Notes: generated by a model from the letters alone, not told the origin. A DNA stretch of 64,000 bases from an uncultured Verrucomicrobiae bacterium (GCA_963756875.1 CAVWPA010000001.1:448001-512000); one strand, 5' to 3'; shown: positions 6,030 to 53,270, counted from the stretch's first letter. Made by a program: numbers and translations.

Positions 6030-6166
6030 AAGCTCCAAACCCGAAGCTCCAACATCCAGAGAAGCTCTAAACTTCAAGCGGCAGTTCTCAGGACTCCGCG
6101 CGTTCAAGTTTTGGAAACTTGATGATTGGAGGTTCTCTGGAGCTTGGATGTTGGAACTTGGTGCTT
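6030..6166. repeat. Empty inverted short-tandem-repeat cassette (AAGCTCC-type heptamers)
   Basis: Left arm aagctccaaacccgaagctccaacatccagagaagctc, right arm gttctctggagcttggatgttggaacttggtgctt; same family at 13824-13956. Confidence 0.75.
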
Positions 6167-6170
6167 CCGG

Positions 6171-9080
6171 TCAGAAGCTCCAGGTAAATCCGCCGCTCAC
6201 GCCGTTGCTGTTGTAATTACTGCGGCCGAGTAATCCGTCGTAGTAAACGTAGACGGAGAAGGCCCGGTTGAGTTGTGCGCTGGCACCGGCTCTCACCTGC
6301 GCGCCATCACGGCCAACCGTTGGCCCCCTGACCGTGAAGACGTCTCCGGCTCCCGAAGCCAGGCTCGCATCGATCGGATAGGCCTGGTCGTTGTATTCAT
6401 GCAGCCAGGCAACATTCAATTCCGGACGGATGATCACGGTTTTGGATGGGTGCAGATCGTAACTGGCTCTTACCCCCACCGTGCTTTGCAGTGAGTTTTC
6501 GTTCTGGTCCGGGAAATCCAAGGGAGCCAGGGAACCGCGCTCTCCGAAATGATCGATTGAGACATCGGTGTATTGGAAGGTGGCTCTGGGGCCGATGTTC
6601 AAGCAACCAAAGCGCCAATCGTAACCGAGCGCGCCAAGAACATTGTACTGACTGCCTTTGGTGCTACCGATGGCGTCGCCCAAAAGAGCGGCGCGACGCG
6701 TCTTGTAGTCGTTCCAGGTGCCGCCCCCGCTGACATCAACATAAAACCTGTCCCAGAACCAGGTGGCAAATCCGCCCACGTTGCCGCCGTTGGTGGTGAT
6801 CCGTCCGTCGTTCACCAGGTTGGCCACACCGGCATCGTAGCCGCCGTAAATGCCAAAGGCCAGATTGTGAAGGAGCCGGTAATCGATGCCTACGGTGAAG
6901 TTGCCGTTGGAAAGATTGTAACCGGTAGCGTTGTCATCGTCGTCTCCGACGTTAACGAACTGGCCCGAGCCGGTGGCCCAGATGCCCCAGCGATTTTCAG
7001 GGGCCGGAACAAAGGCTGGGGCGGAGTTTTTGTTGAGGACCTCCTTGCCATCGGACTCCTTGGTGTAAGCGTTCGGAGGCATTTCCATCGCAACGGTTGA
7101 ACAAAAACCGGTGGACCCGGCGCGGATATCATCCATGCGCTGCATGAGATTGACCCCTTGCATGTTGGCCTGGGTGAATCCCATCTCGTAAATGGAAGCG
7201 AGTTCTTCGGGCGCGATCAGATCGAAGTCATGCGGAAGATTGCCGAATGGCTCCGTCACGAGGAATGAGATCAAGTCGCTCGCGCGTGGATTGTTTCTGA
7301 CCTCATTTAATTCGTTTGCCACAGCTTTTTGATTCGGAGTCAGACCACCAAGAACGGTAAAAGAGGTTATTTCGAATCGTATATAAACATCGAGGGCTTC
7401 ATCGTAATGAGGGACCGGCTGCAAAAAGCCAGTGAAGGTGCTTGTGACATTGTCAAACATTCCGGTATGTCCGCCCAGGTCGCCAATAATGTTCACGCGA
7501 TCCCCGGGCGCCGGATCAAAATTGTTAATGCGAACAAGTGCTAACGTCCCGCCAAGCGAAGCGCTCCCGTTAACCGCCAAGAAGTCACTTTCCACGCCGG
7601 AGTTCAAGCCGCCGATCTGCAGCTGCAAAGTGCCTCCGGTATTTTGCACATAGTTTCCTCCCACCGCCATTGCGCGCGGCCCGTTAAAGGTCTGAAGAGT
7701 ACCGCCGTTGACAGTGACGTCGCCGGTCCCCATCGCATTCAAACTGCCGATGGCGAGTATGCCGTCCTCGATGCTGGTGCCCCCGGTGTAGGTATTGTCG
7801 TGAGTCAGGGTCAACATACCCGTGCCAACCTTGCTGATCGAACCGCCTGCGTCCGGACTAAGCCCGCCATCCTGGATCACCCCAGAAAAGGTCGTGTCCA
7901 TGTTATTGGTCCCGATGGCAAGATTGTTCGATCCGAGAAAAACATTCCCGTCCCCTTCGAGCGAGCCGATAGTCGTGCCGCCCGAAAAGAGAAAGCTGAT
8001 GTCCAGGTTGCCGTTGCCAAAAACTTCCACCCGCGCGTTTTCCCCATGCGAAAAGAAGATGAATTCAATCCGACCGCCATCGCCGCCACCGGTGCCGCTG
8101 TTGGCGATCAGAGTCGCATTGCCCGCAAACGAGCTCTGAAAAATATTAGCCCCGTTCCCGCTAAATAACGTGAGACCACCGCCGGCTCCGGCCGTGGTGC
8201 CGCCCCTGCTCACGATCATACTGTCGGCCGCAGTCGAGGTATCAAGAAACTCCGTCGAGCCGCCGACTACCCCGTTGATACTCGCCTCATTGTTCGTAAA
8301 CATGCCGTTGGCCGCGGTCGCGCTGTTTTGGAAAATCGTCCGGCCCTGGCCTGCGCCGGCGACCGTGCCGGGGTAATTGGCGAATGTGCCATTAGCAGCC
8401 GTGCCGTTGACAAAATTCGTCGCGCCACCGAATCCGCCGGTGGCCGTAGCGCCGTTGTTGATGAACATGCCGTTGGCGGCGGTTGTGCCGGTATCGAGGA
8501 ATTGCGTGGCGCCGCCGCCCGCCATGGCCGCAGTGCCACCATTATTAAAAAAGGTGGCACTGCCCGCGGAGGAGGTGTCGTAGAAATTTGTGATCCCGGG
8601 CACGGCCGCGACGGTGGCGCCGTTGTTGGTAAACCTGGTATTGATTCCGGCCGTTGCGCTGTTGACGAGGTGTATCTGTCCAAATTGGCCGGCTCCGTTC
8701 ACGGCCGTCACGAAGCGCTGTATGAAGGCTGAAATATTGTCAACGCCTCCGCTGTTGATAGTCAGCGTAAAACCGGGGTTGGAGGTGATGGTGAAGGGGC
8801 TGGCAGCCGGGCTGAAAAAAACTGTGAGCGCCTCCGTATTGGCCGAGAGCGAGACGGCGGTCGTATTCGAAGTATCAAATGTCGCCGTATCGCTGGGGCC
8901 ATTGGGTACCGTTACCGGTGTCCAGTTGGTGGCGGTGTTCCAGTCGCCACTGCCGGGATTGAGCAGCCAAGTGGCGCTGCTGGCAAAGGCCGGCGTGGCT
9001 AAGAGCGTAAACGAGAGCGCAAAGGAAACGACGATGACTCTTACCCGGATTAGTTTCATGAACTTTTTCTCTTCCTTCAT
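6171..9080 (-). CDS. Autotransporter (type Va) with beta-strand-repeat passenger
   Basis: Signal peptide, G/N/T/A-rich repeats, passenger-associated repeat KVGTGMLTLTHDNTYTGGTSIEDG, C-terminal beta-barrel ending in WSF. Confidence 0.92.
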   Translation of the reverse strand: MKEEKKFMKLIRVRVIVVSFALSFTLLATPAFASSATWLLNPGSGDWNTATNWTPVTVPNGPSDTATFDTSNTTAVSLSANTEALTVFFSPAASPFTITSNPGFTLTINSGGVDNISAFIQRFVTAVNGAGQFGQIHLVNSATAGINTRFTNNGATVAAVPGITNFYDTSSAGSATFFNNGGTAAMAGGGATQFLDTGTTAANGMFINNGATATGGFGGATNFVNGTAANGTFANYPGTVAGAGQGRTIFQNSATAANGMFTNNEASINGVVGGSTEFLDTSTAADSMIVSRGGTTAGAGGGLTLFSGNGANIFQSSFAGNATLIANSGTGGGDGGRIEFIFFSHGENARVEVFGNGNLDISFLFSGGTTIGSLEGDGNVFLGSNNLAIGTNNMDTTFSGVIQDGGLSPDAGGSISKVGTGMLTLTHDNTYTGGTSIEDGILAIGSLNAMGTGDVTVNGGTLQTFNGPRAMAVGGNYVQNTGGTLQLQIGGLNSGVESDFLAVNGSASLGGTLALVRINNFDPAPGDRVNIIGDLGGHTGMFDNVTSTFTGFLQPVPHYDEALDVYIRFEITSFTVLGGLTPNQKAVANELNEVRNNPRASDLISFLVTEPFGNLPHDFDLIAPEELASIYEMGFTQANMQGVNLMQRMDDIRAGSTGFCSTVAMEMPPNAYTKESDGKEVLNKNSAPAFVPAPENRWGIWATGSGQFVNVGDDDDNATGYNLSNGNFTVGIDYRLLHNLAFGIYGGYDAGVANLVNDGRITTNGGNVGGFATWFWDRFYVDVSGGGTWNDYKTRRAALLGDAIGSTKGSQYNVLGALGYDWRFGCLNIGPRATFQYTDVSIDHFGERGSLAPLDFPDQNENSLQSTVGVRASYDLHPSKTVIIRPELNVAWLHEYNDQAYPIDASLASGAGDVFTVRGPTVGRDGAQVRAGASAQLNRAFSVYVYYDGLLGRSNYNSNGVSGGFTWSF

Positions 9081-9258
9081 TCTGTTGTTATTCGCTTAAG
9101 GGCGGAGTTTGTCTCAAGCGCCTTCATCGGAAATTGATCGTTGCGTTTCAAATGTCCAGCTGAAATGTGAGAGACCGCCCTATAGTCGGTACAATGACGG
9201 GGGGCGCAGTTACTTGCCTCGATGCATTTGTCCGGCGGCCGCGGACTGCCATCACGGG

Positions 9259-13823: not shown

Positions 13824-13956
13824 AAAGCACCAAAACCCAAGCTCCAACCTCCAGAGAAACTTCAAGTTCCAATATTCAACTTCATCGCGCGTTACAATTT
13901 TGGAGCTTGTGTGATTGGTGCTTCTCTGGTGCTTGGAGCTTGGGATTTGGTGCTTT
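13824..13956. repeat. Empty inverted short-tandem-repeat cassette (AAGCACC/AAGCTCC type)
   Basis: aaagcaccaaaacccaagctccaacctccagagaa...ttctctggtgcttggagcttgggatttggtgcttt fills the intergenic gap. Confidence 0.78.
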
Positions 13957-16417: not shown

Positions 16418-16580
16418 CCGGGGAGCGCACGCGCCTCGCGTGCTGGCGACGACGCCCTCGTCGTCGCGAACTTTTTAAAACGAGACAAGGTCGAGATCGC
16501 GGCTGGCGTTCTATCCGGGAGCGAAAAAGTTCGTCGCGGCGAGGCGCCGCAACCAGCACGCCAGGCGCGTGCGGTCCCCA
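16418..16580. repeat. REPIN, GGGAGCGCACGCG family
   Basis: Inverted arms with internal hairpins; related copy at 59089-59201. Confidence 0.75.
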
Positions 16581-18156: not shown

Positions 18157-18326
18157 TCTTGCTCTTACTCTTGATCCTGCTCTTGCTCTTGCTCAGTCTG
18201 TGAATGGCAGAGCCGATTCAATCGTTCCATCGCACGATACCTTGATTCCGCAGGAAAGATCGATCGAAACGGCGACTTCCAGCAGAATGATCAAGAGCAT
18301 GAGCATGAGCATGAGCATGAGGAGGA
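18157..18326. repeat. Empty inverted hexamer-repeat cassette (TGCTCT / GAGCAT)
   Basis: tcttgctcttactcttgatcctgctcttgctcttgctc ... gatcaagagcatgagcatgagcatgagcatgag. Confidence 0.75.
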
Positions 18327-18332
18327 GGTTGC

Positions 18333-19709
18333 TTGAAGTTCATTAACCTCACGCGTCACACGGAGATCGGTGCAAACTCATATTATATAGAGGCTGCCGG
18401 CCGGCGCCTGGTCCTCGACTGCGGCATGCATCCCAAATTCGAAGGCGAAGAGGCCTTGCCAAATTTCAAGGCAATCGCCGACCGGAAACTGGACGCGATT
18501 CTCATTTCGCATTCGCACCAGGACCACATTGGAACGCTTCCGGTGCTCATGCGGCGTCAGCCGGGCGCGCGCGTTTTCATGACGGAGCCGACGACCGAGA
18601 TCGGTGACGTTTTGCTGCACAATTCAGTCAACGTCATGACTCGCCAGCGGGAAGAGCTGGGCGCGACGTTGTATCCGCTTTTCACACACCGTGAGACAAA
18701 TCGCGCGACCGATCTCTGGCAACCCTGTTCACTGCGACAGCCGTACAGCTTGTCCGGTGAACGGGTGCGCGCCGCCGGAACGAATACATTGACTTTCGAA
18801 TTTTTCGACGCGGGCCATGTACTCGGGTCCGTCGGAATTCTGTTACGCGCGGAGGGTCGCACGATCTTTTATTCGGGTGACGTTAATTTTTCCGACCAGA
18901 CCGTTTCGCAAGCGGCCGTTTTTCCCGAGGAGAATGTCGATATCCTCATTATGGAATGCACGCGCGGCGACACGCCGATCCCGCCCGGATGGACGCGCGC
19001 CGGCGAGGAAGATCGCCTCGCTCGCGCGATCGACGATGCTTTTGCGCGCGGCGGTTGCGTTCTCATACCAGTCTTTGCGATCGGCAAAAGCCAGGAAATT
19101 TTTGCAATGCTTTACAAGTTTCGCCGCGAGAACTTGCTGCGCGATTTCCCGGTTTATATCGGCGGCCTGAGCGCAAAAATCACCCAGGTTTACGATCGGC
19201 ATGCGGGGATGGCGCGCCGGCAGTTGCGCCGACTGCAACTTCTGGGTGAGTTGCGACCTTTTGTTTTGAATGGACAAAACATTCACGACGCGCCCGCGCG
19301 CCCCGGCCGTGTTTATGCGCTTTCCAGCGGGATGATGACACCCAGGACGCTCTCTAATATTTTTGCGCGCCGCATTGTTCAAAATCCGCGGCATTCGATT
19401 TTTTTTGTCGGTTATGCCGATCCGGAATCGCCCGCTGGAATTTTGAAAAACACATTGCCGGGCGAACGCGTTTCAATAGACCCGGACGAACCTTCGCAGG
19501 CTCTGCGCTGTCACATGGAACAGTTCCAATTTAGCGCGCACGCCTCGCGCGAATCGATCGTGCAATACGTAAATCGACTGGCGCCAAAAAAGATCCTGCT
19601 CGTGCACGGCGATCCTCTGGCAGCGGAATGGATGCGCGCGGTTCTCAGTCCGGATTTGCCAAACTCCGAGGTGATCGTGCCGACACCGGGGATGGAGATT
19701 GAACTGTAG
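18333..19709 (+). CDS. MBL-fold metallo-hydrolase, beta-CASP family (putative RNase)
   Basis: LDCG, SHSHQDHIG, AGHVLGS, YSGD, LIPVFAIGKSQE, FSAHA, LVHGD. Confidence 0.9.
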   Translation: MKFINLTRHTEIGANSYYIEAAGRRLVLDCGMHPKFEGEEALPNFKAIADRKLDAILISHSHQDHIGTLPVLMRRQPGARVFMTEPTTEIGDVLLHNSVNVMTRQREELGATLYPLFTHRETNRATDLWQPCSLRQPYSLSGERVRAAGTNTLTFEFFDAGHVLGSVGILLRAEGRTIFYSGDVNFSDQTVSQAAVFPEENVDILIMECTRGDTPIPPGWTRAGEEDRLARAIDDAFARGGCVLIPVFAIGKSQEIFAMLYKFRRENLLRDFPVYIGGLSAKITQVYDRHAGMARRQLRRLQLLGELRPFVLNGQNIHDAPARPGRVYALSSGMMTPRTLSNIFARRIVQNPRHSIFFVGYADPESPAGILKNTLPGERVSIDPDEPSQALRCHMEQFQFSAHASRESIVQYVNRLAPKKILLVHGDPLAAEWMRAVLSPDLPNSEVIVPTPGMEIEL

Positions 19710-19792
19710 CGGCGCTCTATGAGCGCCGAATCACACATTGGTTACGGACGAAAATTAGTGCGACGGTCATAGACCGCCGCTACAGCGCGTGC

Positions 19793-20559: not shown

Positions 20560-20655
20560 AAACGCCGAACGCCGAACGTCCAACGCCGAACATCGAACTC
20601 GGATTCTGAATTGGACGTTGGGCGTTGGGCGTTGGACGTTGGACGTTGGACGTTT
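20560..20655. repeat. Empty inverted heptamer-repeat cassette (AACGYCS / TTGGRCG)
   Basis: aacgccgaacgccgaacgtccaacgccgaac ... ttggacgttgggcgttgggcgttggacgtt; same family at 46301-46399. Confidence 0.8.
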
Positions 20656-24207: not shown

Positions 24208-25317
24208 ATGACTGCCGAGTCCAAAAACAAATCCGACGGGTCTTCGTCGGCGAGCTTCAGCCATGTCGATCAATATCTGGCGGTCGGGCAAAAGGCGGGC
24301 GCGTCCGACGTCCACCTTGGTGTAAATTCGCCGCCGATCTGGCGTTTGCACGGAACGTTGCAACCGATCTGGCCCGATGCGCCGGTTTTCACGAGCGAAC
24401 AAACATTGGCGCTGGCGGAAGGATTTCTCTCCGATTTGCACAAAAAGCAGCTGAACGAGCGCGGCGATACCGATTTTGCGTATGCCAATGAATTCGGCCG
24501 TTACCGGACGAGCGTGGTGCGGCAGAGGCTCGGACTTGAGATCGTCTTTCGCATCATTAATACCAGTGTGCGGACGATGGACGAGCTTGGCTTACCTCAA
24601 CATCTTAAGTTGCTCACCCGCTATCAAAACGGCTTGATCCTGGTGACCGGGTCGGTCGGCAGCGGAAAATCGACCACACTGGCTGCGCTGGTCGAGCAGG
24701 TGAACATGGAACGTCGCGAGCATATCATCACGCTGGAAGACCCCATCGAGTACGTGCTGGAACCGAAGAGTTGCCACATCACGCAGCGCGAAGTCCACAC
24801 CCACACGCTCTCATTTTCGGCGGCGTTGCGAGGTGCTCTCCGGGAAGATCCGGATGTCATCATGGTGGGAGAAATGCGCGACCTGGAGACGATTTCGCTC
24901 GCCATCACTGCGTCGGAGACCGGCCACCTGGTCCTGGGAACGTTGCATACCGGAAATGCGTCGCGCACGCTCGATCGATTACTCGACGTATTTCCGCCCG
25001 ATCAACAGGAGCAGATCCGCATCATGGTCAGCGAATCGCTGCGGGGCGTGATCAGTCAGCAGCTGATTCCGCGCATCGATGGAAAAGGACGGGTGCTCGC
25101 GCTGGAAACTCTAACCAACACACCCGCCGTGGCGAATGTCATCCGCGAAGCGAAAACGTACATGCTGCCCGGGATCATCCAGACCGGGAAGAAACAGGGC
25201 ATGCAGCTGATGGACGATTCCCTGGTCGATCTTTACAACCGCGGCTTGATCAGCGCCGAAGAGGCCTACGCCCGCGCAGAGCAAAAAGCCGAAATGCGAC
25301 AGCATCTGAAAATCTGA
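24208..25317 (+). CDS. pilT: Type IV pilus retraction ATPase PilT
   Basis: ASDVHL, GSVGSGKSTT, TLEDPIE, ALREDPDVIMVGEMRD, ETGHLVLGTLH. Confidence 0.92.
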   Translation: MTAESKNKSDGSSSASFSHVDQYLAVGQKAGASDVHLGVNSPPIWRLHGTLQPIWPDAPVFTSEQTLALAEGFLSDLHKKQLNERGDTDFAYANEFGRYRTSVVRQRLGLEIVFRIINTSVRTMDELGLPQHLKLLTRYQNGLILVTGSVGSGKSTTLAALVEQVNMERREHIITLEDPIEYVLEPKSCHITQREVHTHTLSFSAALRGALREDPDVIMVGEMRDLETISLAITASETGHLVLGTLHTGNASRTLDRLLDVFPPDQQEQIRIMVSESLRGVISQQLIPRIDGKGRVLALETLTNTPAVANVIREAKTYMLPGIIQTGKKQGMQLMDDSLVDLYNRGLISAEEAYARAEQKAEMRQHLKI

Positions 25318-25788
25318 CCACGGATTACACGGATTTAACGGATGAGGAAAATAATTCATGAAGAGCTAAGCGGCATCATTATTGGCATCGCTATGGAGGT
25401 GCTCAATGAGTTGAAGCCGGGACTGGATGAAAAACTGTATGAGCGAGCTATGGCAATTGAATTGAAAAGGCGCGGCCATCCGATTTCGGTCCAGACCGCG
25501 TTTCCGGTTTTTTATCGCGGCGAACTAATCGGAAATTTGGTTCCTGATTTAATTGTAGATAATGCCGTAATCGTTGACCCGAAAGTAGCATCCAGCTTCA
25601 CCGAAGCGCACGTTGCTCAAATGATCGGTTATTTGAACATCACCGGGCTCGATCTGGCGCTCCTGCTAAACTTCAAGAATTCGCGCCTGGAATGGAAACG
25701 CGTTTTGCGACCGCGTGAAGCTGCCGGACAAATCGCCCCTGATCTTCATGGTTGAGTATGAATCCGTGATATCCGTGTAATCCGTGGT
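25317..25788. mobile_element. Putative mobile cassette: 27-bp inverted arms (3 x 9-mer) around a GxxExxY gene
   Basis: accacggat tacacggat ttaacggat (25317-25343) and atccgtgat atccgtgta atccgtggt (25762-25788); TCTG on both sides. Confidence 0.65.
25342..25755 (+). CDS. GxxExxY protein
   Basis: GLDEKLY motif, PDLIVD..IVDPK, HVAQMIGYL, LLLNF. Confidence 0.92.
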   Translation: MRKIIHEELSGIIIGIAMEVLNELKPGLDEKLYERAMAIELKRRGHPISVQTAFPVFYRGELIGNLVPDLIVDNAVIVDPKVASSFTEAHVAQMIGYLNITGLDLALLLNFKNSRLEWKRVLRPREAAGQIAPDLHG

Positions 25789-32525: not shown

Positions 32526-32539
32526 GGTTTTAGAATTCG

Positions 32540-33021
32540 TCCGCTAAACACGCTAAAAGACGCCAAAATTCAGAGATAAATCGGTTCATCGGATTCGACG
32601 TTCCGGTGCGTTTTTGCGATCCGCTCATATTGCAGCTTTGGATAATGGCCAAAGTTGAGAAGCAAGCCGAGGTCGAAGCTTCCAGCCTTGAGATAGTTCA
32701 AAACCTGCGCGCGGTGCTCGTCTTTTATTTCCGCAACGGCTTTTAACTCGACTACGACTTTTCCAAAGCAAACGAAATCGGGAAAGTAACTTTGAGTGAG
32801 GACCTGGCCGCGATACTCAAGAGATAAGCCGGGTTGTCCAATTGCCGGAATGTGGCGATGCGCGAATTCAATACCGAGACATTCTTGATAAATTGGCTCG
32901 TGAAAGCCGCATCCTTTGTCTTTGTAAACTTCAAAGCACGCGCCAAGAATCGCATAGCATTCATCCTTTAAGATTAAATCCGGTGCCATTTTTTTTGGCG
33001 TCATTTGGCGTGTTTGGCGGA
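32540..33021. mobile_element. Putative mobile cassette: 29-bp inverted arms (~10-mer units) around a GxxExxY gene
   Basis: tccgctaaacacgctaaaagacgccaaaa (32540-32568) and ttttggcgtcatttggcgtgtttggcgga (32993-33021). Confidence 0.62.
32570..32989 (-). CDS. GxxExxY protein
   Basis: GFHEPIY motif, PDFVCFGKVVVELKAV, HRAQVLNYL, GLLLNFG. Confidence 0.93.
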   Translation of the reverse strand: MAPDLILKDECYAILGACFEVYKDKGCGFHEPIYQECLGIEFAHRHIPAIGQPGLSLEYRGQVLTQSYFPDFVCFGKVVVELKAVAEIKDEHRAQVLNYLKAGSFDLGLLLNFGHYPKLQYERIAKTHRNVESDEPIYL

Positions 33022-33024
33022 TAG

Positions 33025-33345: not shown

Positions 33346-33359
33346 TCTATTTTTCTTTG

Positions 33360-33475
33360 CCCACGAAACACGCGAAAGGACGCGAAAGGACGCGAAAGAT
33401 TCGGAGAGAATCGGACGGCTTTGCAAATCGGCCGCATCTCTTTTCTCTTTCGTGTCATTTCGTGTGTTCCGTGGG
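33360..33475. repeat. Empty inverted ~10-mer cassette between nuoJ and nuoK
   Basis: cccacgaaacacgcgaaaggacgcgaaaggacgcgaaag ... ctttcgtgtcatttcgtgtgttccgtggg. Confidence 0.8.
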
Positions 33476-33481
33476 TTGAAA

Positions 33482-33985
33482 TCATCGAAGCTCGCGCCTG
33501 CTTAGGACAACGACGCCAATTGTGGCGACCAAAACGACCACGCCGATGATCTGGAACGGCAGGGTATAATGCGTGAAGAGCAAAATGCCGATCTGATGGA
33601 CGTCGTCGGTCGTCGGTTTGGCCAATGGAGGCATCGATCGGTGCGCGGCCTTGAAATTACCGATCACGTAAAGAATCTGGACGAAAAAAGCGAGGGCGAC
33701 GGCCACTCCGCCGGCTGAAGCAACCCAGTTGATCTTGCGCAGTTCTTCCGCCCGCAAATCGAGCAACATGATGATGAACAAGAACAGGACCATGATGGCT
33801 CCGGCATAAACGAGCACCTGAATGATTCCGATGAAATAAGCGTCAAGCGACATGAAAAGGACAGCCAGACACAGAAATGAAACCACCAGGCTGAGTGCGC
33901 TCGCCACCGGATTGCGGTTGATGACGACCGCCGCGCCGAACACCAGCATCATCAAAGCAAAAATCCAGAATAGAAAAGCAGGCAT
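33482..33985 (-). CDS. nuoJ: NADH-quinone oxidoreductase subunit J
   Basis: [27 protein letters not shown]. Confidence 0.96.
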
Positions 33986-33993
33986 TTTATTAG

Positions 33994-34072
33994 GCCACCG
34001 ATGAACACAGATGAAACACGGATACGGAATTGAGATCAAAAAAATCTGCGATCATCTGTGTCAATCTGTGGC
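33994..34072. repeat. Empty inverted 9/10-mer cassette between nuoI and nuoJ
   Basis: gccaccgatgaacacagatgaaacacggat ... atctgcgatcatctgtgtcaatctgtggc. Confidence 0.8.
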
Positions 34073-34073
34073 T

Positions 34074-34604: not shown

Positions 34605-34606
34605 TT

Positions 34607-34690
34607 TGCTTTAACTCCTGCTCTTGCTCCTGATCGTGATCATGATCGATCCGCCTCGATCAAGAGCATGATCACGATCACGATTAAGAA
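34607..34690. repeat. Empty inverted hexamer cassette between nuoH and nuoI
   Basis: ctcctgctcttgctcctgatcgtgatcatgatc ... gatcaagagcatgatcacgatcacgattaaga. Confidence 0.75.
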
Positions 34691-34702
34691 TAGGCGCCGC
34701 GA

Positions 34703-35764: not shown

Positions 35765-35777
35765 GTCGGTTGCGCGG

Positions 35778-37508
35778 CTAACGTCCTGGTGGTCTTTTGG
35801 CTTCCGCCCTTTCGATTTCGTGCATTTCCGGATCGACAGGCGGAGGCGGCGACTTACTGGCCCGGATCACTTGCACACCGCGGTCGCCGATTTTGCTCAA
35901 GCTCAATCCCGCGAACTCCGGAATGGCTTCGCTCATTTGCCGAAAAACGTCCTCGATAGAATAGATTCCATCACTCCCCGTGAGCGCTTGCAGCAGGTCG
36001 CGCAAAATTTCCCAATCGTCGCGCGCGTTCCCGGGCCCGCGGACCGCGCGATTCAAGCGTTGCACCCGTCCGTCGCCGTTGATCATGGAGCCGCGCTTTT
36101 CGGCGAAGCCAAACGAAGGAAGCACCGCAGTCGCTTTCTCGGTCGCATCGTTCGACAAAATGTCCATAACGACGAACGCCGGCAGTCGTGTCAATTGCTC
36201 CTCCGAAATTCCGAATGAAGTTGGATTTTCACCCAGGACGACCAACGCCTTCACTTCTCCCGACCGGATTGCCTGCACAATGCCCGGCAATTTTTCACCC
36301 GGATTGGCATTCAACGCCAGGACCAGGCGCGCGCCGTTTGCGTTGGGATTACGGTCTTCGCTCAGCAAAATGTCATCGAACGGCCCGTGCCGGGGCACGA
36401 TGTCCATCCATTGAACGCCGAGCGTTTTTGCGATCTGTGAAGTCAACCAAAGCTCTTCATTCGTCATTCTTCCGGATGCCACGACGGCGATTTCCCAGCC
36501 GGAAAAGTGTCGCAATTGCAGAGCCACGTTTGTAATCGCCGTCTTCCAATCTGCGGGAACCAGTTTGCCGTCTGAAAAAATGCGCGGCTCGAGCAATCGG
36601 CGCTCCGATTCGAGATAAGCGAAATTGAGCCGGCCGTAATCGCACATCCAGCACGAGTTAACGTCGTCGTTTTCGCGCGGGGTCTGGCGGTAGATCACGT
36701 CCTCGCGGGAGCCGATGATGGTGTTGCAACCGGTCGCGCAACTGGTGCAGATGCTTTTGGTTTCCTTCAAAAACCAAACGCGCATCTTGAAACGAAAATC
36801 GGTCGAGGTCAGCGCACCGACCGGACAAATGTCGACGGTATTGAGCGAGTAGTTGTTTTCCAACCGCTTTCCGGGGTGCGCGGTAAGGACCGTGTGACTG
36901 CCGCGATCGACAAAGCCGAGCACGTCGTCATGGGCGATTTCCTGGGAAAAACGAATGCAGCGCGAGCAAAGAATGCAACGCTCGTCGTCAAGCGTGACAC
37001 GCGGTCCCAGCTCCACGTTTTTCGGCTTCTTAACCTTGTTATCGAGAAAACGGGAGGCGGCCGCGCCGTACTCGACGCTGAATTCCTGCAGCTCGCATTC
37101 ACCGGCCTGATCGCAAATCGGGCAATCGAGAGGGTGATTGATCAGCAGGAACTCCATCACGCCGCGCCGGCACTCCTGGGCCAGCGGCGAATTGGTGCGA
37201 ACGCCCATTCCTTCGGCGACGTCCTGCGCGCAGCAAATCTGGGGACGCGCCATCCAGTTGATCACCGGTTTGCCATCGGGGCCGAGCTCCGGTTTGCGGT
37301 CGGGGCCCATTTTCGGCATGCCCATTTCGATCAAGCACATCCGGCAATTGCCCGGGGAGCTCAGTTCCTTGTGATAACAATATCGCGGGACATAACTGCC
37401 GGCCTCCGCGCACGCTTCGATCACTCGCGTGCCCTTGGGAAATTGATGCCACACGCCATCAATCTGGACGTTGAACATTGGCCCTGGAGGCTCCCCGGCG
37501 GCGCTCAT
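35778..37508 (-). CDS. nuoG: NADH-quinone oxidoreductase subunit G (short form)
   Basis: CYH...GNCRMCL, NHPLDCPICDQAGECELQ, RCILCSRCIR, DICPVGAL, CTSCATGC. Confidence 0.93.
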   Translation of the reverse strand: MSAAGEPPGPMFNVQIDGVWHQFPKGTRVIEACAEAGSYVPRYCYHKELSSPGNCRMCLIEMGMPKMGPDRKPELGPDGKPVINWMARPQICCAQDVAEGMGVRTNSPLAQECRRGVMEFLLINHPLDCPICDQAGECELQEFSVEYGAAASRFLDNKVKKPKNVELGPRVTLDDERCILCSRCIRFSQEIAHDDVLGFVDRGSHTVLTAHPGKRLENNYSLNTVDICPVGALTSTDFRFKMRVWFLKETKSICTSCATGCNTIIGSREDVIYRQTPRENDDVNSCWMCDYGRLNFAYLESERRLLEPRIFSDGKLVPADWKTAITNVALQLRHFSGWEIAVVASGRMTNEELWLTSQIAKTLGVQWMDIVPRHGPFDDILLSEDRNPNANGARLVLALNANPGEKLPGIVQAIRSGEVKALVVLGENPTSFGISEEQLTRLPAFVVMDILSNDATEKATAVLPSFGFAEKRGSMINGDGRVQRLNRAVRGPGNARDDWEILRDLLQALTGSDGIYSIEDVFRQMSEAIPEFAGLSLSKIGDRGVQVIRASKSPPPPVDPEMHEIERAEAKRPPGR

Positions 37509-37517
37509 TGTTTGGTC

Positions 37518-37964
37518 TTACTCTTTCTCTTGCTCATGCTCTTGATCGCGCTCGTAACCGAATTCAAAGTCCGACTCCTCGCGTGCCATTGCCGTTCTCG
37601 AATCAAAGCTGTAGCCGAGTCGTTTCAGCAACCCCATAAGCATATTTACGATTTGTACCAGCTGCTCTTTCGCTGCTGCAACGTGAGCCTCTGTCGTTAG
37701 TTTGCGCGAAACCAAAACGTCCAGACTCGCTGCTGATTCCAGTGCCGATCCGCGTGCAATATCAAAAAAGCGCGCGCGATCTCTCGTAGAAAACTTTCCG
37801 TTTCCTTCGGCGATATTCAGCGGAACACTTGTTGCAGCGCGATCAAGCTGATCTTTTGCCGCAGCCTTTGCATCGATCGAGGAAAGGAATTCGCCGACCC
37901 ACCCATTAAAGGCGAGTGATACTTGATAGACATTCAATTTTTCGTGGTCGAAGTAAGCTTTCAT
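37518..37964 (-). CDS. Four-helix-bundle protein (23S rRNA IVS protein-like) flanked by inverted hexamer arrays
   Basis: FDHEKLNVYQ, DQLDRAATSVPLNIAEG, RFFDIARGSALE; arms at 37517-37547 and 37974-38003. Confidence 0.9.
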   Translation of the reverse strand: MKAYFDHEKLNVYQVSLAFNGWVGEFLSSIDAKAAAKDQLDRAATSVPLNIAEGNGKFSTRDRARFFDIARGSALESAASLDVLVSRKLTTEAHVAAAKEQLVQIVNMLMGLLKRLGYSFDSRTAMAREESDFEFGYERDQEHEQEKE

Positions 37965-38013
37965 TTTCAGATTGAGCATGAGCAAGAGCATGAGAAAGAG
38001 TAGGAATAAGGGT

Positions 38014-40008
38014 CTAAATCGTTCCTGCCGCTCCGGCTCTTTCCCAGCCGGGATCGTGGGCCAGTGGTGCGGTGGGGATTTGTTTTTCCTTGATCAGTTC
38101 TTCCGGCGTGTATTCGGGCGGTAACGGTGGCGGTACCGGTTTTGTGGCGTGCGCGGCGAATTCCTCAGGAAATTTTTCGACAAAACTTTGGGTCGGCCAG
38201 GCGCAAGCTTCGCCGAACGCGCAAATGGTGCGTCCGGCGATGTTGTCGCCGATTGTTTTCAATGTTTTTGGATCCTCGACTACGCCACCGCCGCGCAGCA
38301 TGCGTTCGGTGATTTTTTTCATCCAAAGCGATCCTTCGCGGCACGGAGTGCATTGTCCGCACGACTCGTGCGCGTAAAATTCATTGATATTGTTCAGCAC
38401 CCAAACGACATCGCGCGAATCGTCGAGTACGATCACTCCACCCGATCCCGCCATCGAGCCGGCCGCCGCCAGCGAATCGAAATCCATGGGAATTTCATCG
38501 AGCGACATCTCTTGCTCGGCGGTCGATCCGTCAGGTTGCTTTTGTTTGATCTTAAATCTTTCGTCCGCGCGCAAAACCTTGGCCGAACTGCCGCCTGGAA
38601 TTACCGCCTTGAGCGTGCGACCCGGTCTCAAGCCGCCGGCCATGTCGTAAATGAGCTGTCCCATGGTCACCGCGCCGAGCTCGATTTCGAAATAACCGGG
38701 GCGCTGGACGTCGCCGCTGACGCAGACGATGCGTGTACCGGTGTTGTTAGGCCGGCCTAGTTGCGCGTATTTTGCGCCACCCATCGCGATGATGTGCTTC
38801 ACGGCGCAAAGCGTTTCCACGTTGTTCACGATTGTGGGACACATGTAGAGGCCAAGAACGGCCGGGAAATAGGGCGGCTTGATCCGGGGATAACCGCGCT
38901 TCCCTTCGAGCGACTCGATCAGGCCTGTTTCTTCGCCGGAAATGTAAGTCCCCGCTCCGCGATGAATGTAAACCTCGAGATCGAATCCCGTGCCAAGAAT
39001 GTTGCGACCGAGAAAATTGTGTTCGCGCGCCTCTTCGATGGCGCGTTCGAGGATTTTCGCGCCGTGAGGAAATTCTCCTCGTATAAATATGTACGCCGTT
39101 CTCGCGTTCACAGCGAAGCAGGAAATTATCATGCCTTCGAGCAGCTGATGTGGATCTTCGTGAAGGATGTAACGGTCTTTAAACGTGCCCGGCTCGGATT
39201 CGTCGGCGTTGGCAATCAGGTAGATCGGTTTCTTTTCCTCCGGTTTGATGAAACTCCATTTTACTCCGCACGGGAACCCGGCGCCGCCGCGGCCGCGCAA
39301 TCCGGAGGTTTTGACTTCGTTTACAATGTGCTCGCGCGACATGGTGAGCGCTTTGCGCAAGTCCTCGTAGCCGCCGTCGCTCAGGTAGCTGTCGATATCG
39401 GTGTTCCAATCGGAACGCCCGATGTTTTTGAAAATGAGGCGGTGCTCGAGTGGATGTGGAGGATTGCGGTAGGGCTTCTCCGGCGGTTGCGATAAGATCG
39501 ATTCCGCATTTTCCGGCTGCACCCTTTCATGCAATTCGTCGTTTACCATGCAGACTGGCGCGGTGCCGCAGCTGGCCAGGCATTCGACGAACTCGATGCT
39601 GTAATTTCCGTCCGGACTCACAGAAATGGGGTTGTGCATTCCATTGGAGCCGTTCTCGCGATTGGATTTGCGTTGGATCCCGGTTGCGGCGCGCAAGCTC
39701 TCCATCAGCTGATAACCGCCGGCCATGGCGCAGCTGAGCGTCCGGCAAACGCGGATGTGCGTTTTGCCCGCGCGCTGATGGCGAAACATGGGATAAAACG
39801 AGACCAGCTCGAGAATGTTAATTGGCTGCAGCCCGAGCTTCGCCGCGATCCAGGTTATCGCCTCATCATCGATCAGACCGAAGTGCTCCTGCCATAGATG
39901 CAGCAGGGGCATGGCCGCGCTGCGTTTGTGATCGGCCGGGTAACGCCCGATGGCCTCGTCCATTTTCCGCTCTAACTCGGCGGGAACATTTGTGCTCGTC
40001 GAGTCCAC
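38014..40008 (-). CDS. nuoF: Fused NADH-quinone oxidoreductase subunits E and F
   Basis: N-terminal NuoE (SFYPMF, CRTLSC, ECLASC), then NuoF (SGLRGRGGAGF, NADESEPG, ESCGQCTPCREG, TICAFG) in one ORF. Confidence 0.92.
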   Translation of the reverse strand: MDSTSTNVPAELERKMDEAIGRYPADHKRSAAMPLLHLWQEHFGLIDDEAITWIAAKLGLQPINILELVSFYPMFRHQRAGKTHIRVCRTLSCAMAGGYQLMESLRAATGIQRKSNRENGSNGMHNPISVSPDGNYSIEFVECLASCGTAPVCMVNDELHERVQPENAESILSQPPEKPYRNPPHPLEHRLIFKNIGRSDWNTDIDSYLSDGGYEDLRKALTMSREHIVNEVKTSGLRGRGGAGFPCGVKWSFIKPEEKKPIYLIANADESEPGTFKDRYILHEDPHQLLEGMIISCFAVNARTAYIFIRGEFPHGAKILERAIEEAREHNFLGRNILGTGFDLEVYIHRGAGTYISGEETGLIESLEGKRGYPRIKPPYFPAVLGLYMCPTIVNNVETLCAVKHIIAMGGAKYAQLGRPNNTGTRIVCVSGDVQRPGYFEIELGAVTMGQLIYDMAGGLRPGRTLKAVIPGGSSAKVLRADERFKIKQKQPDGSTAEQEMSLDEIPMDFDSLAAAGSMAGSGGVIVLDDSRDVVWVLNNINEFYAHESCGQCTPCREGSLWMKKITERMLRGGGVVEDPKTLKTIGDNIAGRTICAFGEACAWPTQSFVEKFPEEFAAHATKPVPPPLPPEYTPEELIKEKQIPTAPLAHDPGWERAGAAGTI

Positions 40009-40019
40009 GGAAAGGAAAA

Positions 40020-40310
40020 TTAGTCCGACAAAGTGCTCTGCTTCTCCGTGACCTTGTCGTCTTTAAAAACGATCGTCACCGTATCATTGTCCTGGCGGTA
40101 AACGTAGGTCGTCTTTTTCATGACAATAAAGTCCTTGTTGTCGATCGTTGTCGGCGGCCCCAAGATCGATTCGACCTGCTTTTTCGACATTCCCTCCGCT
40201 ACTTCGTCCACGTTCGCCTTGCTGAGTCGCCTGCCGGCGCAGGAGACCGCGAGCACGACCAGAAGCAGGAGAACGAATCGCGAGATGGTTCGCAAAATCG
40301 GCATGTTCAT
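40020..40310 (-). CDS. Small lipoprotein, SmpA/BamE-like domain
   Basis: Lipobox LAVSC, GMSKKQVESILGPP; ATG overlaps the nuoD stop (ATGA). Confidence 0.75.
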   Translation of the reverse strand: MNMPILRTISRFVLLLLVVLAVSCAGRRLSKANVDEVAEGMSKKQVESILGPPTTIDNKDFIVMKKTTYVYRQDNDTVTIVFKDDKVTEKQSTLSD

Positions 40311-41563
40311 CTGTCGCATTCGCCCATGACAAAGTCCAGACTTCCGAGCACGGCCGTTACGTCGCTTACCATGCAACCCGGCAGGATTTCCGGCAAGATG
40401 CTCAGGTTCACAAACGACGGCGAGCGAATCTTCAACCGGTACGGAACGCCTCCGCCTTTGCTGTTGATGTAAAAGCCGAGCTCGCCTTTTGGATTCTCCG
40501 CCGCGAAATAGACTTCACCGGGCGGCGCGTCGAGGCCTTCCGTCACAACGATGAAATGATGGATGAGCTCCTCCATCTTCGTCATCACCCGCGATTTTGG
40601 CGGCGTCATGTTTTTCCAGTCCGTCAAATTAATCGGGCCGCCTGGCAATTTGTCGATCGCCTGCCGCAAAATTCGAACGCTCTGCCGCATTTCTTCCATG
40701 CGCACCAGGTAGCGATCATAACAATCGCCCGCGCTGCCGATGACGACGTCGAAGTCGTAACGGTCGTAATCGAGGTACGGATGTTTACGCCGCAAATCGT
40801 GCTCGACGCCGCTTCCGCGCAGGTTCGGCCCGGAAAGCGCGTAGGCAATCGCGCGGTCTTTCGAAATTATCCCCACGTCTTTTGTGCGATCGACGAAAAT
40901 GCGGTTCCGGCTCAGCAGTTTGTCGCATTCGTCGAGGCTTGGCTCAAAATCGTCCAGGAACTTTTGCAGTTGCGGAATAAACCGTTCCGGCAGATCGCGG
41001 ATCTGCCCGCCGACCCGCGTGTAGGAGGTGGTAAAGCGCGCTCCGGTTAGCAGCTCGAACAGGTTGTAGAGCTTTTCGCGTTCGGTGAACGTGTAAAGAA
41101 ATACTGTCATGGCGCCGAGATCGAGCGCCATGGCGCCGACCCCGATCAGGTGCGACGAGATCCGCGATGTTTCGCAGCAGATGGTGCGGATGGTCTTGCC
41201 GCGCGGCGGAATCTCCCAGCCCATGAGTTTTTCCACAGCAAGCGCGTAGGCGACATTGTTTGAAAGCGGTGCGAGATAATCGAGCCGGTCGGTGTACGGC
41301 ACGAACTGGTTGTACTGCATGTTTTCAGCGATCTTCTCGTCGCCGCGATGCAAAAACCCGACGTCGGGTGTCGCCTTGGTGATGGTTTCGCCATCGAGTT
41401 CGAGCACCAGCCGCAAAACACCATGCGTCGCGGGATGGGACGGGCCCATGTTCAAGACCATCTTCTCGCCGATATCGTCGTCGGCGTGACGCAGCTTCGC
41501 ATCGGCCGCAACCACTCGCGTCACCGGATCAGGCGATTCAATTTCACGCACCGTGAAAGCCAT
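40307..41563 (-). CDS. nuoD: NADH-quinone oxidoreductase subunit D
   Basis: LNMGPSHPATHGVLR, GFLHRG, DRLDY, ENPKGE, SLDFVMGECDR. Confidence 0.97.
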   Translation of the reverse strand: MAFTVREIESPDPVTRVVAADAKLRHADDDIGEKMVLNMGPSHPATHGVLRLVLELDGETITKATPDVGFLHRGDEKIAENMQYNQFVPYTDRLDYLAPLSNNVAYALAVEKLMGWEIPPRGKTIRTICCETSRISSHLIGVGAMALDLGAMTVFLYTFTEREKLYNLFELLTGARFTTSYTRVGGQIRDLPERFIPQLQKFLDDFEPSLDECDKLLSRNRIFVDRTKDVGIISKDRAIAYALSGPNLRGSGVEHDLRRKHPYLDYDRYDFDVVIGSAGDCYDRYLVRMEEMRQSVRILRQAIDKLPGGPINLTDWKNMTPPKSRVMTKMEELIHHFIVVTEGLDAPPGEVYFAAENPKGELGFYINSKGGGVPYRLKIRSPSFVNLSILPEILPGCMVSDVTAVLGSLDFVMGECDR

Positions 41564-41782
41564 AGGAAGGTTAAATGCTAAAAGGGTTACAACGTTAAAA
41601 CGAAACTGGCGATTGCTTTTACGCTGGCGAGTCAACCACCGCGTGCAAGCAAATTTCGATTTTACCGGGTAGCGTACGCGTCGGCGCTTTTCTGATCTCT
41701 GGGGAACATGGGCTGGCAGCCTGTGCTCCCCGGAAACACGATCCTGCTCGCGCTGGTAAAAGAACGCGATTAATTAATCGGC

Positions 41783-45848: not shown

Positions 45849-46301
45849 GTGAATCTTTCCCAACGTATTGATGAAGACCTGAAGGAGGCGATGCGTGCGA
45901 AAAACGCGATCAAACTCGGCGTTCTCCGCATGCTCAAATCGGCGCTCAAATATGCGGCGATCGAAAAATCGGGCAGCGAAGCCGATCTGAACGACGCCGA
46001 AGCCACGCAAGTCCTCCGCAAACAGGCGAAGCAACGCCAGGATTCGATCGAAAGCTTCGAGAAAGGCGGTCGCGCCGAACTGGCGGCAAAGGAAAAGGAA
46101 GAACTCTCGATCTTGCAGTCGTATTTGCCGCAGGCGATGAGCGCGGAAGAGCTCGCGAAGGTTGTCCGCGAAACCATTGCCGAAACCAGCGCTACTTCAA
46201 AAGCGCAAATGGGTGCGGTCATGAAAGCATTGCAGACAAAAGTTGCCGGCCGCGCCGATGGCAAGACGCTGAGCGCGGAAGTACAGAAACAGCTGCAATG
46301 A
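45849..46301 (+). CDS. GatB/YqeY domain protein
   Basis: DLKEAMRAK, KQRQDSIESF..GGR, YLPQ, MGAVMK, GRADGK. Confidence 0.93.
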   Translation: MNLSQRIDEDLKEAMRAKNAIKLGVLRMLKSALKYAAIEKSGSEADLNDAEATQVLRKQAKQRQDSIESFEKGGRAELAAKEKEELSILQSYLPQAMSAEELAKVVRETIAETSATSKAQMGAVMKALQTKVAGRADGKTLSAEVQKQLQ

Positions 46302-46399
46302 AGCAAAGGCCGAACGCCCAACGCCGAACGCCCAACGCCCAACTCAGACGATCCGGGTTCGAAATTGGACGTTGGACGTTGGACGTTCGGCGTTTGCTT
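46301..46399. repeat. Empty inverted heptamer cassette (AACGCCS / TTGGACG)
   Basis: aagcaaaggccgaacgcccaacgccgaacgcccaacgcccaa ... ttggacgttggacgttggacgttcggcgtttgctt. Confidence 0.8.
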
Positions 46400-50493: not shown

Positions 50494-50594
50494 GAAAGTA
50501 GAAAGTAGAAGTTAGAAAGTAGAAAAGCGGAAGCCAGAAGCGGAAATCAAACCTTAAATCCGTTTTCCAATTTCTATTTTAGAATTTCTACTTT
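50494..50594. repeat. Empty inverted heptamer cassette (AAAGTAG / CTACTTT)
   Basis: gaaagtagaaagtagaagttagaaagtagaaa ... tttctattttagaatttctacttt. Confidence 0.7.
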
Positions 50595-51328: not shown

Positions 51329-51428
51329 GAGTTAAAACAGTTACAAAAGTTACAAAGTTAAAACGAAATAGGAGGCACGCTTCAACCTTTAAACAATGTA
51401 ACGCTTGTAACGATGTAACTCTTTTAAC
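51329..51428. repeat. Empty inverted cassette (GTTACA/GTTAAA ~8-9-mer units)
   Basis: gttaaaacagttacaaaagttacaaagttaaaacg ... tttaaacaatgtaacgcttgtaacgatgtaact; lone arm of the same type at 41570-41602. Confidence 0.7.
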
Positions 51429-52212: not shown

Positions 52213-53096
52213 AGCTCTTTGCCGTAGAAGGCGAACGCTGCCAGCGACGTATAAAACGCGATGTAAAATACTCCAAGCGCCGCCGTTTTCACGAACAGGA
52301 CCGAAGGAATCGCTGTGCCCGCAACGATATCGTCGACGAGGTTAAACGCCTGCAGGTCTGGGAAAGCCAGCGCAACGATTGCCAGAAAGAAGCGTGCGAT
52401 CCAGCCGGCGGCTTTTTCCTGCAACCAATACTCGCGAGCCGTCGCCTCCAGGTGGCCGATGAAGTAAATACAAAACATGACCATCACGGTGAAAATATTC
52501 GTGCTCGCGAAAGTGGAAATGAAAAGGGTGAGGGCGGCGAGCAAACACGCTTTCAGGTAAATGATGGTGATGCCCGGGAACAGGTCGATGGTGATGGCGG
52601 ACGAGCGCACCGCGCGCAATGCCTCCTCGAGTTGCGCGCGCGGAGCATGCGCGAACTGACGCGCTGTTTCGCCCAGCACCGTTTGCTCGCGCATATAAAG
52701 AACGGCAATAAACATGGCGCTCATGAGCAGGATGCTGATCCCAAGCAGCAGGAGCACGCCGGCAAGTTTCCCGAGCAGATACTCAAATCGCGGCACCGGC
52801 TTGGCGAGAATCGTGTAGATGGTCCGGTCCTCGATGTCTTGTGGAATCAGGCGCGCTGTCCCGAGAATCGCCAGCAGCGAGGTAAAGATCGACATGGCCC
52901 CAAGCGAAATATCTTTGAGGATCTGAAACTCCTGCTGAAAGCTGAAGCGCGCCATGAACACAGAACTGCCGATCAGGAGCAGGGCGAAAATGAGCAGGAA
53001 GTAGAAAACCCTCTGCCGCGTTAGCTCAGTCAGTGTGTTGGACGTGATGGCGCTGATCCGCGCCGGCGAAAAAGCACGATGCTGTTGTGCAGTCAT
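52209..53096 (-). CDS. ABC-2 type transporter permease
   Basis: DIEDRTIYTILAKPVPR.EYLLGK, several TM segments. Confidence 0.88.
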   Translation of the reverse strand: MTAQQHRAFSPARISAITSNTLTELTRQRVFYFLLIFALLLIGSSVFMARFSFQQEFQILKDISLGAMSIFTSLLAILGTARLIPQDIEDRTIYTILAKPVPRFEYLLGKLAGVLLLLGISILLMSAMFIAVLYMREQTVLGETARQFAHAPRAQLEEALRAVRSSAITIDLFPGITIIYLKACLLAALTLFISTFASTNIFTVMVMFCIYFIGHLEATAREYWLQEKAAGWIARFFLAIVALAFPDLQAFNLVDDIVAGTAIPSVLFVKTAALGVFYIAFYTSLAAFAFYGKEL

Positions 53097-53101
53097 AGAC
53101 T

Positions 53102-53270
53102 GAATGACGAATGACGAATGACGAATGACGAAGGAACTCCGAATGACAAAAACAGAACTCGCGCATGATACGTGGTGCAGTAGTTCGTCATTCGCCTGCC
53201 GCGCCGAAGCTGAGCGAAGGAGGGAGCTTCCTCATTCATTCGTCATTTGTCCTTTTGAGCTCCGTCATTC
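53102..53270. repeat. Empty inverted heptamer cassette (GAATGAC / GTCATTC)
   Basis: (gaatgac)x4 ... ttcgtcattcg ... cattcgtcatttgtccttttgagctccgtcattc; the ABC ATPase C-terminus runs into the arm. Confidence 0.78.

Follow-up and report, generated by a model that had tools for sequence, protein, structure and literature searches.

The DNA analysed here, called the window throughout (64,000 nucleotides, G000:C1:448001-512000), belongs to a soil bacterium of the Chthoniobacterales (Verrucomicrobiota), whose 2.69 Mb genome is assembled in three contigs, has a G+C content of 56.8% and is 87.6% complete. Between its genes, including those of the nuo operon (27815-41635, minus strand), lie small elements in which a short tandem array is followed at some distance by its reverse complement. 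An earlier note on this DNA had named 14 of them, described three as filled with a small gene and the other 11 as empty, and proposed that they form one undescribed family of transposase-free elements in which the class of the arms tracks the cargo. We found inverted arrays of 6-10-nt units at all 14 loci (Table 1), and six of the window elements are located in the nuo operon. Each of the 11 loci said to be empty (79-170 nt) is predicted to fold into a single long hairpin, with minimum free energies of -23.0 to -65.2 kcal/mol, and in the three filled loci an interior of 418-438 nt is enclosed by inverted arms of 27-29 nt. This confirms the observation made in the note, with two corrections: the units at 51329 are 8-9 nt long, and 33360-33475, counted as empty, is the end member of a deletion series of a gene-carrying cassette. 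Its interpretation is partly supported, as discussed below.

The names given to the enclosed genes hold as well. Both GxxExxY genes match TIGR04256/PF13366, with E values of 3e-35 and 7e-37 in the order of the table (121 and 126.4 bits for TIGR04256, cut-off 35; 117.3 and 127.8 bits for PF13366, cut-off 22). The third gene matches TIGR02436/PF05635, the four-helix-bundle (4HB) family of 23S rRNA intervening sequence (IVS) proteins, at E 3e-20 (72.6 bits, cut-off 24, and 75.2 bits, cut-off 33.8, respectively). Each arm is an imperfect tandem array: GxxExxY is flanked by 10-nt CAC-type units and the 4HB gene by GAGCAW hexamers, and the remaining hairpins of the window consist of heptamers (AAGCWCC, AACGYCS, GAAAGTA, GAATGAC) or 8-9-mers. 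The first of the filled cassettes has an inverted-repeat score of 44, compared to a null 95th percentile of 29.5, and is located between two genes (24208-25317 and 25795-26946) that are co-directional with each other.

Table 1. Tandem-arm elements of the window
Feature	Position	Strand	Arms and remarks
Gene-less hairpin	6030..6166		heptamer AAGCWCC arms
Gene-less hairpin	13824..13956		heptamer AAGCWCC arms, 35 nt, 32 paired
Gene-less hairpin	18157..18326		hexamer GAGCAW arms
Gene-less hairpin	20560..20655		heptamer AACGYCS arms
Filled cassette, GxxExxY gene 25342-25755	25317..25788	+	inverted arms of three 9-10-nt CACGGAT-type units
Filled cassette at nuoK>nuoL, GxxExxY gene 32570-32989	32540..33021	-	29-nt arms, 10-nt CACGCCAAA-type units
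Decayed GxxExxY cassette at nuoJ>nuoK	33360..33475	-	arms kept, with remnant of the start of the open reading frame
Gene-less hairpin at nuoI>nuoJ	33994..34072	-	10-nt CACAGATGA-type units, GxxExxY-type arms
Gene-less hairpin at nuoH>nuoI	34607..34690	-	hexamer units, 4HB-type arms
Filled cassette at nuoEF>nuoG, 4HB gene 37518-37964	37517..38003	-	hexamer GAGCAW arms
Gene-less hairpin	46301..46399		heptamer AACGYCS arms
Gene-less hairpin filling the spacer of two co-directional genes	50494..50594		heptamer GAAAGTA arms
Gene-less hairpin filling the spacer of two co-directional genes	51329..51428		8-9-nt GTTACAAA-type units
Gene-less hairpin	53102..53270		heptamer GAATGAC arms

Arm period and enclosed gene

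The genome contains five GxxExxY and three 4HB genes in total, and inverted arrays bracket all eight. Within the bacterial family, GxxExxY occurs in 34 of 41 genomes and 4HB in 37 of 41 (the tallies include G002, G007 and G014, from which no loci were drawn). With mismatched flanks as the null for bracketing and its 95th percentile as the threshold, 66 of the 72 GxxExxY loci of the family scored above the null, 37 of them even above its maximum. The same was true for 32 of the 43 4HB loci; only two of these exceeded the null maximum, because very long shared arrays inflate it. A sample of 80 4HB loci from many phyla, five of which were dropped for short flanks, gave a similar result, with 61 of 75 above the 95th percentile, nearly all of them with period 7.

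The length of the repeated unit depends on the gene that is enclosed. Among the 115 family loci (72 GxxExxY and 43 4HB), none of the scorable GxxExxY arms has a period of 7 or less, and 51 have a period of 8 or more, with 15 arms too weak to score; of the 31 scored 4HB arms, 29 have a period of 7 or less and two a period of 8 or more, one further arm being weak. A Fisher test of period against cargo yields p = 4e-20, a value that overstates the significance because the loci are related to one another. The period rule also holds in the independent cross-phylum 4HB sample. Thus, the link between arm class and cargo suggested in the earlier note is found for the period of the unit as well as for its class. 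In 82 family cassettes the median arm length was 30 nt for GxxExxY and 31 nt for 4HB, a length reached with about three units of 8-10 nt in the former and with four to five units of 6-7 nt in the latter.

According to this rule, the hairpins at 33360 and 33994 are of the GxxExxY type and those at 18157 and 34607, built of hexamers, of the 4HB type, as are the heptamer hairpins at 6030, 13824, 20560, 46301, 50494 and 53102. For the AACGYCS class a filled relative exists, since in L101 a 4HB gene is located between such arrays; for the other heptamer classes, no filled copy was found among the relatives examined. The number of units in the arrays is highly unstable. Overgrown arms of 4HB genes were seen in L101 (G033:C1), with about 45 heptamers upstream of the gene, and in L165 (Planctomycetota), with about 35 units on both sides. 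Arms can also be partly translated: in 37518-37991, the acidic end of the 4HB protein is encoded by the 3' hexamer arm.

Gain or loss of cassettes among related genera

We compared the junctions of the nuo operon in the window and in 12 related genomes, in 11 of which the nuoEF>nuoG junction could be scored; the same number was scorable for nuoK>nuoL. At nuoEF>nuoG the window has 508 nt with the 4HB gene, and L004 has 212 nt with arms of the window type and a 4HB open reading frame (ORF) of which just the beginning is left. Four relatives (L001, L002, L006 and L010) contain 460-515 nt with a GxxExxY gene between unrelated 8-nt CAGGAAA arms, the 5' arm of which opens with the ATG of the GxxExxY ORF, and in six others the spacer is 24-45 nt long and the element is absent. 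The same junction can thus hold two different cargo types. At nuoK>nuoL, GxxExxY is present in the window and in four relatives, and the spacer is reduced to -1 to 21 nt in seven; cassettes orthologous to that of the window were found in L001, L004 and L224. The junction states are dispersed over a tree built from seven concatenated nuo proteins (G017, for instance, is filled and its sister G011 bare), and those at nuoEF>nuoG require at least five events. At nuoM>nuoN, L004 (G012) has a 304-nt spacer with one very long and nearly perfect hairpin (-149 kcal/mol), the arms of which are not tandem arrays, so that the operon also contains a palindromic insert of another kind.

Metagenome contigs of the same bacterial family (80 contigs, NuoI 79-90% identical) painted a similar picture. 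The nuoH>nuoI junction, scorable in 67, was filled with a 4HB gene between hexamer arms in 12, held a fragment in one and a short form in 39, and was bare in 15; the short forms there represent at least five classes of arms. At nuoK>nuoL (58 scorable) there were six filled junctions, two fragments, 15 short forms and 35 bare junctions. Occupation was rarer at nuoJ>nuoK (one filled, no fragment, three short, 59 bare) and nuoL>nuoM (two filled, no fragment, four short, 29 bare). The arm class of the gene-less hairpin at nuoI>nuoJ recurs at this junction in L208, L220, L260 and L270. Filled, empty and absent alleles of orthologous junctions, as envisaged in the earlier note, are therefore all present among relatives and metagenome contigs, showing that cassettes have been gained or lost between related genera. 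They have either been inserted repeatedly into the same stop-start spacers or been lost cleanly, and in both cases the process has to be site-precise.

Two further observations concern the fate of single lineages. When 25 GxxExxY proteins encoded at nuo junctions were placed on a tree, copies from nuoJ>nuoK, nuoK>nuoL and nuoL>nuoM were mixed within the subclade that has CCCACGAAACAC-type arms; since one arm-type subclade is intermixed over three junctions, this lineage has changed its junction. At nuoJ>nuoK we found a nested series of internal deletions, from the intact cassette of L193 (495 nt) over L010 (328 nt), L002 (174 nt) and the window (139 nt, 33360-33475) to L211 (124 nt). The arms as well as the first and last bases of the ORF are retained throughout, and likewise in the 4HB cassette at nuoEF>nuoG. 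At least some of the empty hairpins are therefore relics of filled cassettes. The idea of a single family of elements, some with and some without a gene, is borne out by these data. The short forms, which the earlier note took for possible non-autonomous members, are at these two junctions relics of internal deletion and not copies mobilised in trans. Among contigs from three soil-metagenome runs, one (run X1, 3x coverage) contains the arms of 32540-33021 (32567/32992) joined by 31 other letters, with the gene absent; the flank match comprises only 29 nt, so that this may be a gene-less copy at another locus or from another organism, and the contig was not used.

The cassettes start a few bases past the upstream stop codon (median distance from stop codon to 5' arm 4 nt in the family sample) and end just before the next start codon. 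The cargo is oriented in the direction of the operon in 33 of 33 cargo matches at metagenome nuo loci and at all filled junctions of the 12 genomes. Across the family, 57 loci could be judged unambiguously (30 were ambiguous and one had no neighbour), and in 55 of these the next gene downstream is co-directional.

Both parts of the cassettes are under purifying selection. Orthologous cassettes have a non-synonymous divergence (dN) of 0.04-0.17. Of the 27 pairs, 18 show a saturated synonymous divergence (dS), and the nine with computable dS have a dN/dS of 0.02-0.13, showing that both proteins have been kept functional over long times. Arm identity amounts to 0.87-0.93, a figure that may run somewhat high because repeats align easily, compared to 0.88-0.90 for codon positions 1 and 2 of the cargo and 0.41-0.50 for position 3.

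Arrays elsewhere in the genome

Short-period arrays (period 5-12) are frequent in this genome, with 272 arrays compared to two in a block-shuffled genome, and those with period 7 predominate. A reverse-complement partner within 700 nt (score of at least 24) was found for 84 of the 272 arrays and, in a control stretch 5 kb away, for 8 of 272; at a score of at least 32 the numbers were 43 and 2. Altogether there are 64 paired loci. Judged by our own crude gene calls, 45 of the 64 paired loci and 198 of the 272 arrays are intergenic, where random placement would predict 23%. A first scan for inverted repeats, based on exact seeds, missed four of the 14 window loci (33360, 34607, 51329 and 53102), which the array-based scan recovered. 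Searches with Rfam gave zero matches in the window at gathering thresholds. An interpretation of the short hairpins as intrinsic terminators was rejected, because a T run follows only 4 of 55 of them.

The AACGYCS family comprises 17 paired copies, and the 15 that were examined have conserved termini together with variable loops and unit numbers, as in families of miniature inverted-repeat transposable elements (MITEs). The orientation of these AACGYCS hairpins relative to transcription (7 versus 6) gave no information. For the hairpin at 53102, an inner GC-rich segment is conserved and is common to copies in relatives (the nuoH>nuoI, nuoJ>nuoK and nuoL>nuoM junctions of L004). Two host genes, rplS (C1:107534-108055) and a small membrane-protein gene (C3:564889-565343), seemed to be enclosed by arms; they were rejected as cargo, since each is merely flanked by separate hairpins of the same class.

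Many arrays are solo, and some are grouped in islands that contain several unit classes. Such islands, with long spacers and mostly partnerless arms, are located at C3:1549000-1559500, C1:677500-689500 and C3:625500-632000, and the classes GGACAGA, AACGCCS, GAKCAT, GAATGAC, AAGGGSN and GGAGCAN follow one another in series. The island at C1:677500-689500 terminates at a 4HB gene preceded by eleven GGACAGA units. In the window, a solo array of CTCCTG hexamers lies between two minus-strand ORFs (62331-62370), with no partner within 700 nt at the threshold used.

Solo arrays and islands are what would be expected if all these structures were passive by-products, with replication slippage building the arrays, template switching at quasi-palindromes keeping the arms alike, no function or mobility, and an accidental association with genes. 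The range of copy numbers, from three units to about 45 (L101, L165), as well as the missing wobble signature and target duplication discussed below, would fit this explanation. Yet it leaves too much unaccounted for, and we regard it as very improbable. The earlier note had named as a refuting outcome arrays made by simple slippage with no inverted pairing above chance, and pairing above chance was found. The by-product explanation provides no reason why 66 of 72, 32 of 43 and 61 of 75 cargo genes are bracketed in independent samples including many phyla, why the period is cargo-specific, why arms are conserved at a level at which third codon positions are not, why related cassettes occur at three different junctions, or why the cargo is co-directional throughout (33/33 and 55/57).

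Nature of the cassettes

Since arms differ in period according to the cargo family and in unit sequence according to the cassette lineage, the cargo protein is the most economical candidate for a reader of the arms. The GxxExxY protein has the expected features of a PD-(D/E)xK nuclease fold with its catalytic residues and is a putative nuclease: E31, Y34, E41, D71 and K83 are invariant in 32 aligned sequences, E81 is conserved in at least 90%, and the predicted structure (pLDDT 89.5) has an alpha/beta nuclease fold. In a structure search with this model the best match was Cas4 SSO0001 (E 7e-5, TMq 0.47), followed by lambda exonuclease, and the Holliday-junction resolvase Hjc was more distant (E 0.03); with TM-scores of about 0.5, no substrate can be named from matches this weak. 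PF13366/PDDEXK_3 is classed as "Unknown" in the one survey found (PMC3424549). The 4HB protein matches PDB 2gsc in sequence (E 3.5e-7), the S23p protein of Xanthomonas, a homopentamer of four-helix bundles, and PF05635 is described as having "no known function" in the excerpt that we cite (PMC4990558). The earlier view of the elements as transposase-free agrees with our searches, in which the cargo proteins had zero matches to transposase families in Pfam and NCBIfam. Retro-mobility was rejected as well, as no PF00078 reverse transcriptase was found in this 87.6% complete genome.

The closest known elements are the intervening sequences of 23S rRNA and the STRR (short tandemly repeated repetitive) hairpins of cyanobacteria. 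The IVS of Coxiella is presented as a 428-nt element with a 28-bp terminal inverted-repeat stem and a loop that contains an S23p ORF; RNase III cuts halfway along the stem, and the cited part of the article gives origin and mobility as unknown (PMC4990558). As far as this account goes, IVS of Coxiella and Leptospira resemble the window cassettes in their size of about 430-490 nt, their terminal inverted repeats with a stem of about 28-30 bp and their sporadic presence among relatives without a transposase (PMC4990558). The ORF in the loop is of the 4HB type, and the 4HB gene of the window belongs to the same Pfam family, PF05635. Unlike the IVS, however, the window elements are located between protein-coding genes of operons and not in rRNA helices, their arms are tandem arrays of short units, gene-less copies are numerous, and a second, unrelated cargo (GxxExxY) is found in the same design with another period. 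The single 23S rRNA gene of the genome (C1:202042-205086) contained no tandem array or long inverted repeat in our scans.

STRR sequences are 7-bp repeats that form hairpins between cyanobacterial genes, with a function stated to be unknown in the part cited (PMC2670836). They share with the elements described here the 7-nt tandem repeats in intergenic DNA and the hairpins between genes of one operon (PMC2670836). The hosts differ, being filamentous cyanobacteria there and Verrucomicrobiota here, and whereas the sections of the STRR paper that we draw on describe no link to an enclosed gene (PMC2670836), heptamer arrays here and across phyla bracket 4HB genes. The claim that the system is undescribed has therefore to be narrowed, as the 4HB form is built like the 23S rRNA IVS and intergenic heptamer hairpins are known as STRR. 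A published statement of the general cassette rule was not found in the full-text literature searched, which covered few subscription journals and no supplements; apart from the two precedents, what looks like a family of selfish gene cassettes is apparently undescribed.

REPINs are doublets of repetitive extragenic palindromic (REP) sequences with a conserved GTAG tag, linked to a Y1 HUH transposase, the REP-associated tyrosine transposase (RAYT). MITEs and transposons with multiple subterminal binding repeats have multi-unit terminal inverted repeats and gene-less deletion derivatives. The likeness is considerable: gene-less hairpins dispersed between genes, a single-gene master flanked by the same repeats and no target duplication in the case of REPINs, multi-unit terminal repeats and deletion derivatives without gene in the case of MITEs. 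A conventional transposase from another place in the genome might accordingly move the hairpins in trans, as REPINs or MITEs, and their dispersal as families with conserved termini as well as six weak matches to Y1_Tnp (PF01797) in the genome would be in line with that. We consider this the least probable explanation. The six matches lie outside the cassettes and belong with another type of repeat, REP-like hairpins of the GTAG type without tandem arms; the GTAG tag is missing from the arm sequences of the tandem-arm elements that were examined; the enclosed genes belong to PF13366 and PF05635 and not to Y1 or other known transposases; a fixed target duplication is absent; and the elements are inserted only in stop-to-start spacers, in the direction of the operon. 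Palindromes of the GTAG type are located in the window at 2369-2427, 16420-16579, 19704-19785, 59090-59201 and 60411-60471. Together with the weak Y1_Tnp matches, they suggest that a REP/RAYT-like system may coexist with the tandem-arm cassettes.

Taking the evidence together, we propose, with a probability of roughly 0.7, that the elements are two sister kinds of small, IVS-like, transposase-free selfish gene cassettes, together with their relics, wedged into operon junctions. Several points weigh against this proposal. The most numerous gene-less classes (AACGYCS, AAGCWCC and GAATGAC) are without a filled partner in this 87.6% complete genome. The loci compared are related to one another, and the counts are thus not independent. 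We know of no enzymatic activity of the 4HB protein. The saturation of synonymous sites means that many cassettes are old residents, and the distribution could be largely due to loss. There is no general target duplication, with 9 of 121 occupied junctions above the null 95th percentile and two above the 99th. Finally, mismatches in the arms show no excess of G-U pairs on the sense strand (sense versus antisense 46 versus 69, 41 versus 53 and 47 versus 67, with 110, 128 and 170 transversions in the three comparisons); this missing wobble signature argues against selection on the RNA stem alone. Taken together with the conservation of the arms, it suggests that the arms are read as sequence and not just as a stem.

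By eye, cassettes at nuoL>nuoM in L209, L227 and L244 and at nuoK>nuoL in L001/L002 appeared to be followed by a repeat of the upstream gene's end, but after the systematic test of the 121 junctions duplication as a general feature was rejected. One clear duplication was seen among the 121: at nuoK>nuoL of L001 (G017), a diverged copy of the nuoK 3' end (27 of 33 nt) is located downstream of the GxxExxY cassette.

It might also be possible that the hairpins belong to the host, as STRR-type stems inside operons that process or stabilise the transcript by RNase III segmentation, protection of 3' ends or coupling of translation, the small genes being passengers or unrelated neighbours. For STRR hairpins, a role in transcript stabilisation or translational coupling has been proposed, according to the sections cited (PMC2670836), and the stems of about 30 bp are comparable to those of intervening sequences cut by RNase III (PMC4990558, in the part cited). 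RNase III is encoded in the genome, the hairpins fill stop-to-start spacers within operons, and with so few T runs they are no terminators. This explanation is nevertheless unlikely. The same junction is bare in close relatives (15/67 at nuoH>nuoI, 35/58 at nuoK>nuoL), hence the operon has no need of a hairpin, and at least five unrelated arm classes are found at one junction among relatives. A host stem would not require arm sequences conserved beyond pairing or a period that depends on the enclosed gene, and it does not agree with the absent G-U signature or the many solo arms that are unable to form a hairpin.

If the elements are selfish cassettes, the cargo protein would recognise the repeated units in the arms around its gene, in the manner of iterons or terminal repeats. 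The hairpin might render the insertion harmless in the host transcript, by analogy with the intervening sequences of 23S rRNA: a stem of about 30 bp could serve as substrate for RNase III and could also draw the upstream stop codon beside the downstream start codon. For the movement of the DNA, our best guess is a structure-dependent cut-and-rejoin reaction at the base of an extruded hairpin or cruciform, which would leave no target duplication.

A more far-reaching version is tentative, and we give it clearly less than even odds. In it, the GxxExxY and 4HB proteins would be sequence-specific readers of their own arms, GxxExxY being also the cutter, and would form together with these arms a new, cross-phylum class of transposase-free mobile elements. 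These would move via a hairpin or cruciform without target duplication and would be hidden in transcripts as a self-excising or stop-start-bridging stem. The 23S rRNA IVS, the cyanobacterial STRR arrays and the tandem-arm hairpins of soil bacteria would then have a common origin.

For annotation, it matters that tandem-arm hairpins make up much of the DNA regarded as non-coding in this genome. For two very widespread small protein families, the units repeated in the arms around their genes become a candidate nucleic-acid partner; should recognition of the 6-10-nt units be programmable and specific to the lineage, these proteins would be of interest as nucleic-acid recognition modules. If our reading is true, the hairpins that many uncultured soil bacteria have between their genes would be linked, through one design, to rRNA intervening sequences and STRR repeats, and this design would explain how genes can be wedged harmlessly into tightly coupled operons.

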